Position numbers and translations under genes: made by a program. Shown piece after piece: positions 5,636 through 54,501 of a DNA stretch of 64,000 nt; the stretch's first letter is position 1; each line of letters begins with the position of its first letter. Under the pieces are notes generated by a model. It did not search any database. It saw only the letters and a program-made list of their open reading frames with translations, and was not told where the DNA came from. The stretch lies in assembly GCF_988243305.1 (NCBI RefSeq), contig NZ_OZ547136.1; one strand, 5' to 3'.

Positions 5636-6763
<1,128 letters not shown>

Positions 6764-7045: not shown

Positions 7046-7110
7046 GGGTGCCTGAAGCTTTCCGGTTTCAGGTTTACTCTGAGGTCTGGAAAGATGAAGC
7101 CCCAGGACGA
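7046..7110 (-). ncRNA. sokE: Putative Sok antisense RNA, copy 1 (approximate coordinates)
   Basis: Inferred from hok/sok architecture: antisense to the mok translation-initiation region; candidate minus-strand -10 tagaaat at 7123..7117 and a weak -35. Confidence 0.3.
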
Positions 7111-7282
7111 TATTTCTATCAACCCTGGGGCTGCCACTCCAAACCCAAACAATTTGGATGGTAGTCCCTTCTTCGCATGGAGGCAATATAAACATGCTGA
7201 CGAAATATGCCCTTGCGGCAGTCATAGTGCTGTGTTTGACGGTGCTGGGATTTACGCTTCTGGTCGGAGACTCGCTGTGTGA
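7094..7282 (+). CDS. mokE: Mok (modulator of killing) overlapping reading frame, copy 1
   Basis: 62-aa ORF overlapping hok in another frame, as in hok/sok loci. Confidence 0.5.
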
Positions 7283-7346
7283 GTTTACGGTGAAGGAACG
7301 TAATATTGAGTTTAAGGCTGTTCTCGCTTACGAACCGAAGAAGTAG
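7194..7346 (+). CDS. hokE: Hok-family type I toxin (50 aa), copy 1
   Basis: [50 protein letters not shown]; single TM helix and conserved Hok C-terminus. Confidence 0.85.
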
Positions 7347-7549: not shown

Positions 7550-7614
7550 GGGTGCCTGAAGCTTTCCGGTTTCAGGTTAACTCTGAGGTCTGGAAAGATG
7601 AAGCCCCAGGACGA
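7550..7614 (-). ncRNA. sokE: Putative Sok antisense RNA, copy 2 (approximate coordinates)
   Basis: Same position relative to mok/hok as copy 1. Confidence 0.3.
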
Positions 7615-7786
7615 TATTTCTATCAACCCTGGGGCTACCTACCCAAACCTGAACAATTTGGATGGTAGTCCCTTCTTCGCATGGAGGCAATATAAACATG
7701 CTGACGAAATATGCCCTTGTGGCAGTCATAGTGCTGTGTTTAACGGTGCTGGGATTTACGCTTCTGGTCGGAGACTCGCTGTGTGA
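7598..7786 (+). CDS. mokE: Mok overlapping reading frame, copy 2
   Basis: 62-aa ORF, 3 aa different from copy 1. Confidence 0.5.
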
Positions 7787-7850
7787 GTTTACGGTGAAGG
7801 AACGTAATATTGAGTTTAAGGCTGTTCTCGCTTACGAACCGAAGAAGTAG
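7698..7850 (+). CDS. hokE: Hok-family type I toxin (50 aa), copy 2
   Basis: [50 protein letters not shown]; one substitution (A8V) relative to copy 1. Confidence 0.85.
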
Positions 7851-7950
7851 CCGTTGTGCGGGGAGTAATCCCTTAAGTTAGCGCTTATGGGAGTAATCCC
7901 CGCATATCCGGTTGTCAGGTCAGGGTGGTAAGGCACCTGCTTTACACTTT

Positions 7951-7978
7951 CGCCCGCAGTCAGCATTGGCTGCGGGCG
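7951..7978 (+). terminator. 3' stem-loop of hok mRNA copy 2
   Basis: cgcccgcagtcagcattggctgcgggcg palindrome. Confidence 0.5.
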
Positions 7979-7999
7979 AATCGCTCCGGGTATTGTCAA

Positions 8000-8620
8000 T
8001 TAATCGTGTTGGCACAGCGTTATGACTATCTTTTCTTTTATCTGCCAGTGCACAGCAAACTGCTCATCCTCTAGTCGAATGATGATCTGCTGTTTATTCA
8101 AGCTAATTATCTGATAATCCAGAAATCCTGCATCAGTTTGTCTCTCCGATGCCTTAAATGCGCTCTCTTTGGCGGAAAATGCCAGTGTTAGCGCCAGAGA
8201 AAAGGTTAAACCGCATTCTGCGAGTCGCTCGTGTTCTGCTGGTGTAATAATGTTGTCTGTCAATTCTCTTGCGGTTTGTACAGAGAAAATCTCTTCGATA
8301 TCAATGCCAATCGGTTGACGAGATACCACGGCTAATGCCGTAGTCCCGCAGTGGCTAATACTGCCGTATACCTCCGCAGGCCACACAGGTTGGCGTAGCT
8401 CGCCGATAGCGGGCACATATTTATAGCCATATTCCCGCAAGGCATAAACAGCAGCGATTCGTCCAGCTAAATGCTCTGTTTTACGTTTACGTCCAGCGTG
8501 TTGCAGTTGTGCGTAGTGTGGCAGCCAGAGTAAATCCTGCTCGCGAAAACTCGCCGGATCGAACTTAACAAAATGCAGCGTATTTCCGGCAAAGGGGAGG
8601 GCGGTATGCGTAGTTTTCAT
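8000..8620 (-). CDS. entD: 4'-phosphopantetheinyl transferase for enterobactin synthase
   Basis: ORF 8000..8770; PPTase motifs PIGIDIEEI and FSAKESAFKA; start ambiguous (MKTTHT at 8620 or MVDMKTT at 8629). Confidence 0.85.
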   Translation of the reverse strand: MKTTHTALPFAGNTLHFVKFDPASFREQDLLWLPHYAQLQHAGRKRKTEHLAGRIAAVYALREYGYKYVPAIGELRQPVWPAEVYGSISHCGTTALAVVSRQPIGIDIEEIFSVQTARELTDNIITPAEHERLAECGLTFSLALTLAFSAKESAFKASERQTDAGFLDYQIISLNKQQIIIRLEDEQFAVHWQIKEKIVITLCQHD

Positions 8621-8655
8621 GTCGACCATATTAGAGACTGATGACAAACGCAAAA

Positions 8656-8755
8656 CTGCCTGATGCGCTACGCTTATCAGGCCTACGTGGTCCTGCAATA
8701 TATTGAATTGGCAAGATTTTTGTAGGCCGGATAAGGCGTTCACGCCGCATCCGGC
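8656..8755. repeat. REP/BIME element (two REP-type palindromic units) between entD and fepA
   Basis: gcctgatgcgctacgcttatcaggcctac and tgtaggccggataaggcgttcacgccgcatccggca match the enterobacterial REP consensus family. Confidence 0.75.
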
Positions 8756-8794
8756 ATGAACTACGCGCACTTTGTCAACAATCTGACGTTAGCA

Positions 8795-11035
8795 TCAGAA
8801 GTGAGTATTAATGCTCATATACCACGTACGTCCCGGCTCGTTATAGGTATATGCCCCGGCACCGGCGATATAGTTGGCTCCTGCCAGATCGCCTGTGGTC
8901 TGGGCATTACCCGCACGCCACAAACGTTTGTCGAACAGGTTGTCCACGCCGCCGGTCAGACTGACATTCTTCGTTACATCCCAGGTCGCGCTCAGGCCAA
9001 CAATGCTGTACGGGCTGATTTCTTTGGTTTCCGGTCCAACCGCTGGCTGACCTTTATAGTTGTACTTCTTCGGCTGCTGCTTGCCGTACCAGGTGAAGGT
9101 TGTTTGCATCGACAAATCTTCCCGTGCCTGCCAGCTCAGCGTTGAGTTCAACGTATACTCCGGGATGATCGACAAACGGTCGCCCGTGGTTTTGTTTTCA
9201 CTCTTCAGCATATAAGTGATGTTATTGGTCCACATCACCGTTTCGCTAACCGGTACGTTTAACGATCCTTCCAGACCTTCAACCACCGCTTTCGGTACGT
9301 TATCCCACTGATAGAGATCGGTGCCGACTGCGTTTTGCCCTACAGCCACATAGCCCGCTTCAATCTTATTGCGATAATCGTTACGGAACCAGGTGACGCC
9401 CGCCAGCCAGCCGTCGCGTTTGAACTCCAGACCAATCTCTTTGTTGATGCTGGTTTCTGCTTTCAGGTCATCATTACCTTGCAGATAGCAGCCGCCCGCG
9501 CTGGCATAGCAGCCCTGACCTTTACTGTAGAGAATGTAGTTCGGGTTAGTCTGGTACAGACTCGGCGCTTTATAAGCACGGGCAATGCCCATTTTCAGCG
9601 TGAAGTCATCGCCTAAACCTTGCGAGATGTTCAGCGCCGGACTCCAGTTATTGCCAACAATGCTGTGATGATCGAAACGCAGCCCCGGCGTTACGATGGT
9701 GCTGTCAGTCAGCTCCATATTGTTTTCGGCAAATAGCGAGAAAATTTCTGCTTTTGAATACGGGCTACGGTCGGTGGCACTCACGCCATCAATAGCACCG
9801 CCGGTATTCGTCCCAGTGAGCGCCTGGGTGTTGGAACTTAAATCCTTCATCCGCTGCTGATTCCACTCCGTACCCAGCGTCAGCGTCTGGTTAACGAGGA
9901 AATCAATCGGCAGGTTAACTTCGCTGTGCAGCATCACGTCATCGAGATCGATATCGACGAAATCCTGTGTCGCTTTTTCGTTAAATTTCCCTTCGGTACC
10001 GCCCGCCAGACCTTCCGGAATACGCGAGTTACGGGTGTGTTCGTACTGCACCCAGTTGCTGGTGGTCACGCCGTTATCCCAGCCGCCGTTCCATGTCAGC
10101 GAGTAGTTCTGGCGATACAGACGGTTGGTTTCATCGCCATATTTCGAGCGGGTATAGGAGTCAGAGTTGGTGTTCTGGGTGTCGCCCGCATACAGGTTAC
10201 CCTGGCGGCTGTAGCCCGCTTCCAGTTCGAGTGATTGCAGAGGCGCGAAGTCCCAGCGCACTACGCCATTAATATCTTTGTTAATTACCCCTTCGCGCCC
10301 GGCTGGTAACGTCGTGGCATACGTTCCGGCACGCGCGGACTGATGGCCCTGGTTGATATCCCACGCGTCAGCCTGGGTTTTGTCGAGGTTGCCATACAAG
10401 CGGAAGCTGAATTCGTCGCCCAGCGGACCGGTCAGGCTGAAGTTGGTGCGTTTAGTGGCACCTTCCTCTTTATGTTCTGGCGCATTGAAATAAGCGTCCC
10501 AGGAGCCGTGCCACTCACCGCTGCCTTTTTTGGTAATGATGTTAACCACGCCGCCCGCCGCGCCGTTGCCATAACGCGCAGCTGCCGGACCACGCAGAAC
10601 TTCAATACGTTCAATCATTTCAGGTGGCACCCAGGAAGTATCACCACGGGTATCGCGCTCGCCACGCCAGCCCTGACGCACCGAGTTACGGCTGCTTACC
10701 GGTTTGCCGTCAATCAAAATCAGCGTGTTTTCCGGACCCATGCCGCGAATATCAATCTGGCGGTTATTACCACGCTGACCACTGGTGGAGTTGCCGGTCA
10801 GGTTAACGCCTGGCATGGTACGGATGATCTCCGACACATCGCGGGCAACCGGGTTTTTGCGGATTTCATCTGCGGTGATGGTCGAAACGCCAGGTGCCTG
10901 CAAGTTCTGCTCGGCGGCGGTAACGACAATGGTATCGTCATGTGAAACAGGAGTATCGGTCGGCTCTTGTGCCTGTGCTACCCCATAAATCCCCAGATTG
11001 ACCAACAAGGCCAGGGAATGAATCTTCTTGTTCAT
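8795..11035 (-). CDS. fepA: TonB-dependent ferric enterobactin outer-membrane receptor
   Basis: ORF 8795..11092; start MNKKIHSLALL with signal peptide; TonB box DTIVVTA; C-terminal aromatic terminus ...NTHF. Confidence 0.95.
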   Translation of the reverse strand: MNKKIHSLALLVNLGIYGVAQAQEPTDTPVSHDDTIVVTAAEQNLQAPGVSTITADEIRKNPVARDVSEIIRTMPGVNLTGNSTSGQRGNNRQIDIRGMGPENTLILIDGKPVSSRNSVRQGWRGERDTRGDTSWVPPEMIERIEVLRGPAAARYGNGAAGGVVNIITKKGSGEWHGSWDAYFNAPEHKEEGATKRTNFSLTGPLGDEFSFRLYGNLDKTQADAWDINQGHQSARAGTYATTLPAGREGVINKDINGVVRWDFAPLQSLELEAGYSRQGNLYAGDTQNTNSDSYTRSKYGDETNRLYRQNYSLTWNGGWDNGVTTSNWVQYEHTRNSRIPEGLAGGTEGKFNEKATQDFVDIDLDDVMLHSEVNLPIDFLVNQTLTLGTEWNQQRMKDLSSNTQALTGTNTGGAIDGVSATDRSPYSKAEIFSLFAENNMELTDSTIVTPGLRFDHHSIVGNNWSPALNISQGLGDDFTLKMGIARAYKAPSLYQTNPNYILYSKGQGCYASAGGCYLQGNDDLKAETSINKEIGLEFKRDGWLAGVTWFRNDYRNKIEAGYVAVGQNAVGTDLYQWDNVPKAVVEGLEGSLNVPVSETVMWTNNITYMLKSENKTTGDRLSIIPEYTLNSTLSWQAREDLSMQTTFTWYGKQQPKKYNYKGQPAVGPETKEISPYSIVGLSATWDVTKNVSLTGGVDNLFDKRLWRAGNAQTTGDLAGANYIAGAGAYTYNEPGRTWYMSINTHF

Positions 11036-36858: not shown

Positions 36859-37139
36859 TAATTTGTCCTTTTCAGTCAGTGCAAAAGTCGGGTAAAAGGC
36901 ATAACCTATCACTGTCATAGGTAAGAGCTTAGATCAGGTGATTGCCCTTTGTTTATGAGGGTGTTGTAATCCATGTCGTTGTTGCATTTGTAAGGGCAAC
37001 ACCTCAGCCTGCAGGCAGGCGCTGAAGATACCAAAGGGTAGTTCAGATTACACGGTCACCTGGAAAGGGGGCCATTTTACTTTTTATCGCCGCTGGCGGT
37101 GCAAAGTTCACAAAGTTGTCTTACGAAGGTTGTAAGGTA

Positions 37140-40918: not shown

Positions 40919-41147
40919 TTTTACTCCATGTCGTCGGTACTGCGAGTGTCGCAGATAAACATACCCAAAAGAAAACCCTCACCGTCAGGCGGCGAGGGTT
41001 TAACTCACATGATGATACTGACTGTTGCTCACTCTTTGAAGTGATTTGCGTCACATTCAGGGAATTCCTCAATGTAGCGCATTATGTATAAATCTTAATC
41101 GTCATGGTTTATGGAAGACGAATTAGCGTGTTTTGTAAATCAGAGGA

Positions 41148-54069: not shown

Positions 54070-54243
54070 GACAAATGAAATTTTAGTAAACTCTTTAAAA
54101 TCAATGAGTAAAATAATTAACATCAAAAATAACGCGACTTTTATCACTTTTTAGTAAAGTTGCACTGGACAAAGCGTACCACAATTGGTGTACTGGTAAC
54201 CGACACAGCATTTGTGTCTATTTTTCATGTAAAGGTAATTTTG

Positions 54244-54453
54244 ATGTCTAAGATTAAAGGTAACGTTAAGTGGTTTAATGAGTCCAAAGGATTCGGTTTC
54301 ATTACTCCGGAAGACGGCAGCAAAGACGTGTTCGTACACTTCTCTGCAATCCAGACTAATGGTTTTAAAACTCTTGCTGAAGGTCAGCGCGTAGAGTTCG
54401 AAATCACTAACGGTGCCAAAGGCCCTTCTGCTGCAAACGTAATCGCTCTGTAA
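54244..54453 (+). CDS. cspE: Cold-shock domain protein
   Basis: 69 aa from [12 protein letters not shown]; RNP motifs KGFGFI and VFVHF. Confidence 0.9.
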
Positions 54454-54471
54454 GATACGTCAGCAAGAATT

Positions 54472-54501
54472 CAAAACCCGCTTAATCAGCGGGTTTTTTT
54501 T
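54472..54501. terminator. Bidirectional intrinsic terminator between cspE and crcB
   Basis: aaaacccgc ttaatca gcgggtttttttt. Confidence 0.7.

Follow-up and report, generated by a model that had tools for sequence, protein, structure and literature searches.

A BIME-1 element nearly fills the fepA-entD intercistronic spacer of Escherichia coli and probably limits expression towards entD

FepA is an abundant outer-membrane receptor and EntD a catalytic phosphopantetheinyl transferase; their genes lie next to each other on the same strand. The locus raises the question of what occupies the spacer between them, where EntD begins, and whether the intervening sequence sets how much is made on its distal side. 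The DNA analysed here (the window, 64,000 nucleotides of contig NZ_OZ547136.1, assembly GCF_988243305.1) is the ybdK–hokE–entD–fepA–fes region of E. coli. The fepA call is based on the list of open reading frames and on the RefSeq annotations of strain VCSW7 (100% identical) and MG1655, with the start placed at 11035. Judged by homology, the entD product is EntD, a predicted Sfp-type 4'-phosphopantetheinyl transferase: its homologues carry PF01648 and PF17837, are named enterobactin synthase subunit EntD and show at least 90% identity to Escherichia EntD. The order of the two genes is kept in 76 of 80 loci, and the spacer has the length of that of MG1655 (610080-610253), with 4 of its 174 positions differing between K-12 and the window. 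The pair is treated as one Fur-regulated operon, whose expression a fepA promoter-up mutation is described as increasing (PMC10763504); the effect of CsrA on entD is described as indirect (PMC5694010).

8795..11035, minus strand: fepA coding sequence, 746 aa (MNKKIHSL... to ...NTHF), stop TGA at 8797-8795
8621..8794, minus strand: fepA-entD intercistronic spacer, 174 nt
8000..8620, minus strand: entD coding sequence, 206 aa (MKTTHT), best-supported start ATG at 8620-8618

A first-pass annotation of this DNA placed two REP-type palindromes at 8656..8755, inside the presumed fepA-entD transcript. The palindromes are found at 8657-8686 and 8722-8756, so that the earlier coordinates are right to within 1 nt; the REP/BIME identification is likewise right, and the element lies within the known operon transcript (PMC10763504). 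The parts of the element, to which no strand is assigned, are as follows, the complete unit first and then its parts in the order of transcription.

8631..8786: complete BIME-1 unit, 156 nt (K-12 610090-610245), made up of right flank, Y REP, L linker, Z1 REP and left flank
8757..8786: right flank motif, first transcribed, in part complementary to the left flank
8722..8756: Y-type REP, GTAGGCCGGATAAGGCGTTCACGCCGCATCCGGCA on the plus strand, palindrome I3
8687..8721: L linker of BIME-1, 35 nt, with an IHF-like core ATTCAATATATTG at 8708-8696 (minus strand)
8657..8686: Z1-type REP, GCCTGATGCGCTACGCTTATCAGGCCTAC on the plus strand, palindrome I4, a short form of the z-type
8631..8656: left flank motif, last transcribed, holding the in-frame TTG codons at -9 and -11, and also present in the yqjF-yqjG copy

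Both palindromes are REP sequences, or palindromic units (PU), a class of imperfect palindromes some 30-40 nt long with a conserved GTAG...CTAC end, extragenic and highly repeated. The REP tail motif CTTATCMGGCCTAC occurs on both strands, shuffled sequences gave 0 REP matches, and a 401-nt query holding the REPs matched most E. coli genomes (4645 records) at 40 or more places each. The Y and Z1 REPs stand head to head (arms I1) between the fepA stop and the entD start, and a second inverted repeat, I2, joins flank to flank (8635-8648 with 8771-8784). For the Y REP the match is to the first hairpin of Rfam naRNA4, and for the linker to Rfam ES036, at 8679-8720 on the minus strand (42.2 bits; gathering score 37.6). 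Per E. coli genome, the linker and the right flank motif each have a median of 5 occurrences, and a paralogue in the yqjF-yqjG spacer is 93% identical over exactly 8631..8786. Unique sequence is confined to 10 nt (8621-8630) and 8 nt (8787-8794) at the two ends of the spacer, which is thus essentially one BIME-1 (also RIP or RIB), with Y and Z1 arranged around the L linker between two flank motifs, which presumably are those labelled 'A' and 'B'. BIME-1 is defined by z1 plus y, a long conserved L, a frequent IHF site and single copy (PMC3333891). No structural difference separates the present element from the BIME-1, RIP and RIB described earlier (Gilson et al., 1991; Boccard and Prentki, 1993; Oppenheim et al., 1993; summarised in PMC3333891): like them it pairs y with an inverted z1, has a long conserved L with an IHF-like core, is an untandemed single copy, and lies extragenically at the 3' end of a gene inside a transcription unit, with further copies elsewhere in the genome. 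The choice of z1 over z2 follows what we take to be the consensus, together with the definition in PMC3333891. The fepA-entD BIME-1 is already known biology and the REP-barrier idea is textbook matter; the observation is genuine but ordinary.

The first-pass annotation also regarded the entD start as ambiguous, because the frame extends 50 codons upstream of MKTTHT and was said to contain MVDMKTT and further Met codons. The frame is open for 56 codons, to a TAA at 8791-8789, and the first start-type codon in it, a GTG at 8770, indeed yields the 50-codon extension as a 256-aa open reading frame (8000..8770). MVDMKTT is present (ATG 8629-8627 and ATG 8620-8618), but the further Met codons are not: the MVD ATG is the sole one upstream of MKTT, and the remaining in-frame candidates are TTG at -9, -11 and -26 and GTG at -41 and -50.

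8627..8629, minus strand: alternative in-frame ATG (MVD-MKTT, 209 aa), 1 nt outside the repeat
8621..8770, minus strand: non-coding 'N-terminal extension' of the mechanical open reading frame, a translation of the BIME

An open stretch of 56 codons has a probability of ~0.07 in random sequence and is unremarkable; among Escherichia, 1-nt indels in the spacer make its length vary between 23 and 56 codons. The open frame is a by-product of a repeat that has no stop codon in that frame. The start itself is best placed by comparison across genera. An ATG is aligned to the MKTT Met in 73 of the 75 entD loci with fepA upstream (about 25 enterobacterial genera), and many genera have an in-frame stop 1-3 codons upstream of it; the canonical ATG is therefore the conserved start. 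The MKTT Met is also invariant in the EntD protein alignment, and the annotations of MG1655 b0583 and VCSW7 use the same codon. On this comparative evidence, ATG 8620-8618 is the best-supported start of EntD. A coding N-terminal extension was rejected: it would be translated repeat, 1-nt indels break its frame in other Escherichia (L003, L004 and L005), and it is missing from other genera, which carry the upstream stops just mentioned. A fepA-entD read-through fusion was rejected too; the two genes share a frame here (with TGA TGC TAA between), but this is coincidental, as three Escherichia lineages have a spacer of 173 nt.

It is nevertheless conceivable, though very doubtful, that EntD is wholly or partly extended at its N-terminus, to 209 aa from ATG 8629 or further from the TTG and GTG codons of the repeat. 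Within Escherichia both ATGs are invariant, ATG 8629 in all 7 sequences compared, and the nearby substitutions (TCT/TCG and GAC/GAT) both fall at third positions of the MVD frame, but two such synonymous-looking changes are not significant (~0.11 by chance). Outside Escherichia no ATG stands at -3. ATG 8629 lacks a Shine-Dalgarno sequence (SD energy +0.9 kcal/mol), and the SD energies of the candidate starts reach -3.3 kcal/mol at best, where random sequence gives -1.7 +/- 2.3. Among the extensions, only the three-codon MVD variant could conceivably be used. No entD initiation peak was seen at either ATG in the INRI-seq and Meydan data tabulated in PMC9825163 (fepA 194-254 in INRI-seq), a table in which many genes are peakless, so that the missing peak says nothing on which ATG serves. 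No entD entry was found in the TRAINSPOTTER N-terminomics supplements, a search for a solved structure of E. coli EntD from which to read the N-terminus returned none (top match 7BCZ, E = 4e-20), and literature searches on entD with REP, on its start codon or UUG, and on ES036 gave nothing relevant.

The ambiguity is real in automated annotation, where EntD clusters at 206, 209, 217, 222, 236, 247 and 260 aa, but the comparative evidence settles on the canonical ATG. In the known re-annotation (b0583, NP_415115.2, 206 aa), K-12 and PGAP use the same ATG as here, whereas older or automated annotations differ, with 209 aa or longer forms. The original 1989 entD sequence paper reportedly gave 209 aa, and the original papers are said to have used either 209 aa or a UUG start, which would suit an extended protein, as would the many database entries with 209, 217 or 247 aa. 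In the 247-aa form, however, gene callers begin at a GTG in the loop of the Y REP, and the longer forms generally are translations of the repeat. Thousands of public EntD entries accordingly bear false N-terminal extensions that translate a REP. The importance of the case is small and mostly a matter of annotation housekeeping.

With the start placed, the remaining question is what the element does in the transcript. The spacer RNA has a predicted minimum free energy of -76.4 kcal/mol (z = -6.15), and the hairpins of the Y and Z1 REPs are predicted at -21.3 and -12.9 kcal/mol. An RNA 3' end mapped by Term-seq in K-12 lies within it.

8667, minus strand: equivalent of the Term-seq RNA 3' end at K-12 610126, inside the Z1 REP

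This end, 610126(-), comes from the M63 minimal-medium data only, with 31,462 reads and the class 'orphan' (Adams, 2021, PMC7815308), and is placed by supplementary files 1 and 3 of PMC7815308 at -47 from the entD start; it falls 128 nt past the fepA stop. The first-pass annotation, which suggested that REPs can stabilise upstream mRNA and attenuate downstream expression, had held that the idea would fail if no transcript ended at the REP element; in K-12 one does, in Z1. The position is not the simplest one, as the end falls inside the Z1 hairpin, after GCGUAGC, whereas a simple barrier model predicts it just downstream of the REP stem. In the folding model the position would fit a barrier only with the 3' arm of Y pairing the 5' arm of Z1. 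By prediction, such Y:Z1 inter-REP pairing gains 4.7 kcal/mol over separate hairpins, but in E. albertii one pair at the base of the Z1 stem has gone from G-C to A-U, a compensatory change that favours the intra-Z1 hairpin over Y:Z1 pairing.

As to expression, entD mRNA tracks fepA only partly (log2FC -0.98 for entD versus -3.37 for fepA; PMC8910356). For the stabiliser and attenuator roles suggested earlier, the 3' end in Z1 and this partial uncoupling give genuine though indirect support; an effect of the BIME on the level of fepA or entD, the latter in particular, is plausible by analogy with other REP loci. The mechanism would run as follows. Carried in the Fur-regulated fepA-entD mRNA, the BIME-1 is transcribed from Y through L to Z1. 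In RNA it would fold into very stable hairpins that block 3'-to-5' exonucleases, perhaps with some partial termination as well; RNA covering fepA would then build up in a stable form with its 3' end in the BIME, and entD would be covered by less, or less stable, RNA. Together with an entD start region devoid of a Shine-Dalgarno sequence, the BIME would keep EntD far below FepA. Overall, the most satisfactory explanation, which we hold to be probably right, is that a BIME-1 fills the spacer and limits RNA or expression towards entD, with EntD starting at ATG 8620-8618. The locus would then make a teaching case of a gene for an abundant receptor and one for a low-abundance enzyme that share a promoter and are uncoupled by a structured intercistronic repeat.

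The same uncoupling could arise if entD were transcribed mostly from a weak promoter of its own in or near the spacer, the BIME being the true end of a monocistronic fepA unit. The far smaller response of entD to Fur-linked repression, the discrete 3' end in the BIME and the canonical terminator that follows fepA in some genera all suit such an arrangement. However, pattern scans found no sigma-70-like match on either strand of 7850-9000, and the view of fepA-entD as one Fur-regulated operon raised by the promoter-up mutation (PMC10763504) also speaks against it; the chances of a separate entD unit appear slim. The scan of the minus strand over 7850-9000 found no intrinsic terminator either, Z1 being followed by AGUUUUGCGUUUG, which is below the T-run criterion of the scan, and both a terminator and a separate sigma-70 promoter in the spacer were set aside. 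Neither fepA nor entD appears in the SMRT-Cappable-seq tables.

The preferred reading, a BIME limiting expression towards entD, has precedents. REPs are said to act as mRNA stabilisers in polycistronic operons, notably malE-malF and hisJ-hisQ, in accounts attributed to Higgins in 1982 and Newbury in 1987, and Espeli, Moulin and Boccard reportedly described BIME-associated transcription attenuation in 2001. As in malE-malF and hisJ-hisQ, the fepA-entD element is intercistronic, between a strongly expressed proximal envelope gene and a weakly expressed distal gene, and it has, like the stabilisers and attenuators, a stable RNA structure with an internal mapped 3' end; unlike in them, that end is inside the second REP and not at the foot of a REP stem. 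A REP hairpin starting within ~15 nt of the upstream stop codon reportedly acts on translation, according to Liang and colleagues in 2015. Here the distance from the fepA stop to the Y REP is 38 nt (8794-8757), beyond that limit, although the predicted helix of the whole element begins 11 nt past the stop.

Whether the element is maintained can be read from its conservation. In E. coli the BIME at this junction is single-copy and constant in length, and each of the five further Escherichia lineages sampled has it too, with spacers of 173-174 nt. For E. coli this rests on 58 and 29 sampled rows and on coverage statistics from 5,426 complete genomes: in 5346 of the 5426, at least 80% of the query was covered at one place, and all 58 of the 58 sampled loci spanned 241-242 nt in one piece. 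About 80 genomes gave no contiguous match, and in one looked at (H97) the top match was the yqjF-yqjG paralogue, at a different locus. A comparison of REP copy number among strains, which the first-pass annotation had proposed, was thus run, and no variation was seen. Among 7 Escherichia sequences, variation affects 16 of the 177 columns of the spacer, compared with 103 of 200 third-codon positions of the genes on either side (Fisher p = 5e-20), so that the spacer changes at about a fifth of the rate of nearby synonymous sites. Bases diagnostic of this locus are kept relative to the yqjF-yqjG paralogue. By these alignments the fepA-entD BIME-1 is under purifying selection.

The slow evolution could stem in part from a role at the DNA level, such as IHF or gyrase binding, instead of RNA. 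In its stronger form this would make the element mainly an IHF-binding and/or gyrase or topology site (RIB/RIP) at the end of the highly transcribed fepA. The IHF-like core ATTCAATATATTG agrees with WATCAANNNNTTR, the IHF core consensus, at 12 of 13 positions, the L of BIME-1 often has an IHF site, and REPs bind IHF, Pol I and gyrase and insulate topologically (PMC3333891). Against this, a comparable match arises by chance ~0.2 times per 200 nt, and the linker varies more than any other part of the element (in 8 of its 35 columns, versus 0 of 35 in Y), though the IHF-like core is itself invariant. A mainly DNA-level function is quite unlikely, but DNA-level and RNA roles of the BIME-1 are compatible.

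The same junction in other genera extends the picture. The spacer measures 38-70 nt in most Citrobacter, Salmonella and Kluyvera, and a perfect hairpin of at least 7 bp is found in 58 of the 69 non-Escherichia loci scanned; nearly all genera examined have a structured element between fepA and entD. The hairpins of other Enterobacteriaceae are GC-rich and share operon position and orientation with the BIME-1, lying 7-27 nt before the entD ATG in the 38-70 nt spacers, but are unrelated to it in sequence (CCCTCTCC...GGAGAGGG). Citrobacter, Salmonella and Kluyvera have one small hairpin, whereas Enterobacter, Kosakonia and Lelliottia have arrays reaching 657 nt plus a canonical terminator, which in several genera of the Enterobacter group stands immediately 3' of fepA. 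We assume that these non-Escherichia elements are those called 'boxC'. Comparison of the spacers indicates that Escherichia put a BIME-1 in place of an ancestral small hairpin. The retention of a hairpin at the junction, its replacement in Escherichia and the roughly fivefold slower evolution are the modestly new points of this analysis.

These data also weigh on the view of the BIME-1 as a passive, selfish or neutral repeat, of the 3' end as an inconsequential decay intermediate, and of low EntD as due solely to a weak start and codon usage. Such a view draws on the occurrence of the element at other loci, e.g. yqjF-yqjG, on the lack of a Shine-Dalgarno sequence at any candidate start of entD, and on the missing in-vitro entD initiation peak, even with a REP-less template. 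The slow spacer evolution with its locus-specific bases, the compensatory change in Z1 and the structured junctions of nearly all genera argue against it, and we consider it unlikely. At the other extreme, RNA structure at the junction might be a selected, family-wide setter of the receptor:enzyme ratio, with BIME-1 swapped in and acting either as a Y:Z1-helix exonuclease barrier or as part of a functional fepA 3'UTR fragment; this is a long shot. If it were true, the barrier implied by a 3' end inside Z1 would be a long inter-REP helix of Y with Z1 and not two separate REP hairpins; alternatively, a fepA 3'UTR fragment ending in Z1 would be a stable ES036-like RNA with its own function.

A further small structure lies at the fepA end of the spacer.

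8782..8799, minus strand: small predicted hairpin UCUGAUG-CUAA-CGUCAGA over the fepA stop codon (minimum free energy fold)

This predicted hairpin is invariant among the 7 Escherichia sequences.

The window covers the Escherichia coli enterobactin region in the K-12 gene order, and the genes that concern us are taken from the ORF list:

5636-6754, minus strand, ybdK
8000-8620, minus strand, entD
8795-11035, minus strand, fepA
start 11278, plus strand, fes

The K-12 annotation places entD (b0583, 206 aa) at 609459-610079 and the end of fepA at 610254, with a spacer of 174 nt, as in the window (8621-8794). The closest match to window 8500-8900 is the soil isolate VCSW7 (100% identical). Only 15 of 5,426 complete E. 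coli genomes reach at least 99% identity over this segment, most lying at 95-99%, so the window comes from a less-sampled lineage.

Two REP palindromes, located between the fepA stop and the entD start by the first-pass annotation, are indeed found there (8657-8686 and 8722-8756), arranged head to head with 35 nt of linker between them. The REP at 8722-8756 corresponds to the naRNA4 hairpin of the y type. The linker scores above the gathering score of Rfam ES036 (consensus AAAuUUGUGCAAAUUCAAUAAAUUGCAGGA...ACGUAGGCCU), has a median of five copies per E. coli genome and contains ATTCAATATATTG, a sequence match to 12 of the 13 positions of the IHF core consensus. BIME-1 elements consist of a z1 and a y REP with a long conserved L linker, frequently with an IHF site, and occur in single copy (PMC3333891). 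The spacer element has this architecture, and everything agrees with what is known of the BIME-1/RIP/RIB family and with the classical model of intercistronic REPs. One genome whose best match was not the fepA-entD locus brought to light a paralogue in the yqjF-yqjG spacer, with 93% identity across window 8631-8786. This sets the repeat unit at 156 nt, including flank motifs of ~26 and 30 nt beyond the REPs; the right one has a median of five copies per genome. Only 10 nt beside the entD ATG and 8 nt beside the fepA stop are unique. The 156-nt paralogue itself (fetched locus L083:1501-1656, E. coli 21AR0303) likewise separates two genes of the same orientation; its order of transcription is Y-L-Z1, and terminator-like hairpins flank it. 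The finding is real and already known. The 1989 entD sequence papers are reported to mention REP sequences in the fepA-entD spacer and a 209-aa product. A 129-aa mechanical ORF (8756-9145, plus strand), antisense to the fepA 3' end and with the end of the Y REP as its ATG, is almost certainly not a gene.

In the entD frame the minus strand reads NTHF* C * RQIVDKVRVVHAGCGVNALSGLQKSCQFNILQDHVGLISVAHQAVLRLSSVSNMVDMKTTHT. The 50-codon upstream extension corresponds to a mechanical ORF from GTG 8770, the frame being open for 56 codons upstream of MKTT, and MVDMKTT lies in frame as described. The further in-frame Met codons are the one error in an otherwise correct observation, as there is no ATG besides that of MVD, the rest being TTG (-9, -11, -26) and GTG (-41, -50). 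The upstream open frame is the BIME read by chance in a stop-free frame (chance probability ~0.07), and 1-nt spacer indels in three Escherichia lineages break it. In the window strain fepA and entD share one reading frame, TGA TGC TAA (8789-8797) being followed by the open BIME frame; given the 173-nt spacer of three Escherichia lineages, this is coincidental and not conserved.

The proposed ambiguity of the entD start holds for gene callers, which disagree (Escherichia EntD clusters of 206, 209, 217, 222, 236, 247 and 260 aa), but comparison across genera resolves it in favour of the conserved MKTT ATG, the long forms being artefacts. The 247-aa form (2,481 member sequences) starts at a GTG in the y REP loop (window 8743). 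Thousands of public EntD sequences carry a false 41-residue N-terminal extension (MNALSGLQKSCQFNILQDHVGLISVAHQAVLRLSSVSNMVD...; proteins P0001, P0003, P0029, P0031), which is a translation of the BIME. Among 80 entD loci fetched, one genome per species, fepA lies immediately upstream in 76, and 73 of the 75 analysable loci have an ATG in alignment with the MKTT Met of E. coli. Many genera have an in-frame stop 1-3 codons upstream of this ATG, making an extension impossible there, and the MKTT Met is invariant in EntD protein alignments. Only Escherichia has an ATG at -3 (MVD), and within it neither of the two ATGs varies. The conserved EntD start is ATG 8620-8618, already taken by current K-12 and PGAP annotations; the 209-aa form may be a minor product. 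A Shine-Dalgarno sequence is absent at every candidate entD start (best -3.3 kcal/mol vs random -1.7 +/- 2.3), the energy at the fepA start being -4.3 kcal/mol. The annotated entD start has no peak in five INRI-seq replicates (fepA, 194-254) or in the in-vivo data of Meydan (PMC9825163 Table S2). The missing peaks fit a very weak start but favour neither ATG.

At least 80% of a 241-nt spacer-centred query is covered in one place in 5,346 of the 5,426 complete E. coli genomes. REP copy number, suggested as a point of comparison among strains, does not vary in the 58 loci sampled, all single pieces of 241-242 nt, as expected of BIME-1. Five further Escherichia lineages, E. albertii and E. whittamii among them, carry the same element (spacer 173-174 nt). 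An alignment of seven Escherichia sequences has 16 variable columns among the 177 of the spacer and none among the 35 of the y REP; in the neighbouring 300 nt of fepA and entD, 103 of 200 third-codon positions vary (p = 5e-20 vs spacer). Since orthologues retain the bases that set this copy apart from the yqjF-yqjG paralogue, purifying selection, not gene conversion, is indicated.

The fepA-entD genes are treated as one Fur-regulated operon (PMC10763504), which places the REPs inside the transcript, as had been supposed. Folding predicts a highly stable spacer RNA (-76.4 kcal/mol, z = -6.15). A transcript that ends at the REP element is also on record: in the Term-seq data of Adams et al., 2021 (PMC7815308), a 3' end at 610126(-), 47 nt upstream of the entD start, has 31,462 reads, is classed as "orphan" and is listed for M63 only. 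The corresponding window position, 8667, falls within z1, 128 nt past the fepA stop. It lies 3 nt past a helix predicted to form between the y 3' arm and the z1 5' arm, and would fit exonuclease trimming to this inter-REP helix. The inter-REP fold is predicted at -44.8 kcal/mol vs -40.1 for separate hairpins. Against it, E. albertii (L006:1324-1500) carries a G-C to A-U compensatory double substitution at the base of the Z1 stem (GTAGACC...GGTGG vs GTAGGCC...GGCAG), a covariation that favours the intra-z1 hairpin. On a microaerobic shift, log2 RNA changes were -3.37 for fepA and only -0.98 for entD (PMC8910356), so entD RNA is partly uncoupled from fepA. A pattern scan of the spacer found no intrinsic-terminator or sigma-70 promoter pattern. 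The identity of the element, its conservation and the RNA 3' end are shown; by analogy with other REP/BIME loci, for which such effects are reported (Higgins 1982; Newbury 1987; Espeli 2001), it would stabilise fepA RNA and reduce entD expression.

Outside Escherichia the spacer is usually 38-70 nt, with a single GC-rich hairpin (CCCTCTCC...GGAGAGGG) that lies 7-27 nt ahead of the ATG. The spacer reaches 657 nt in Enterobacter, Kosakonia, Lelliottia and relatives, where it contains tandem REP-like units and often, ahead of them, a canonical AAAACGGC...GCCGTTTT terminator hairpin. Of the 69 non-Escherichia loci scanned, 58 have a perfect stem of 7 bp or more. From these junction hairpins, a structured element appears to be ancestral, BIME-1 having taken its place in Escherichia. 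Mildly new are this replacement, the family-wide persistence of a hairpin at the junction, the slow evolution of the fepA-entD copy and the odd placement of the mapped RNA 3' end. In Huaxiibacter, Pseudenterobacter, Enterobacter and Lelliottia (L064, L067, L074, L080-L082), a canonical bidirectional terminator hairpin (AAAACGGCAAC...GTTGCCGTTTT) directly follows fepA, and then 1-4 tandem units of a CCCTCTCCC...GGGAGAGGG(CC/TT)GGGGTGAGGG repeat; spacers are 200-657 nt in the Enterobacter group and Kosakonia oryzendophytica (L054).

Downstream of entD, the hokE/sokE locus, a type I toxin-antitoxin system, is present as a tandem duplication (7046-7346 and 7550-7850, period ~504 nt): Rfam sok matches twice (82-84 bits), and there are two pairs of hokE/mok ORFs; VCSW7 is likewise annotated with two hokE genes. 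K-12 has a single copy followed by IS186B, which is missing from the window. The last ~40 EntD residues (window 8000-8140) are mosaic among E. coli and Shigella (P0029, P0036, P0015), and some EntD clusters (219-260 aa) differ in C-terminal length with unrelated sequence; such patterns suggest recombination or rearrangement at the entD 3' end, beside the hokE/IS186 region. Elsewhere in the window, Rfam matches above the gathering score are the STnc70 sRNA (36992-37085), the rnk leader (40964-41072) and a cspA-type thermoregulator (54143-54501).
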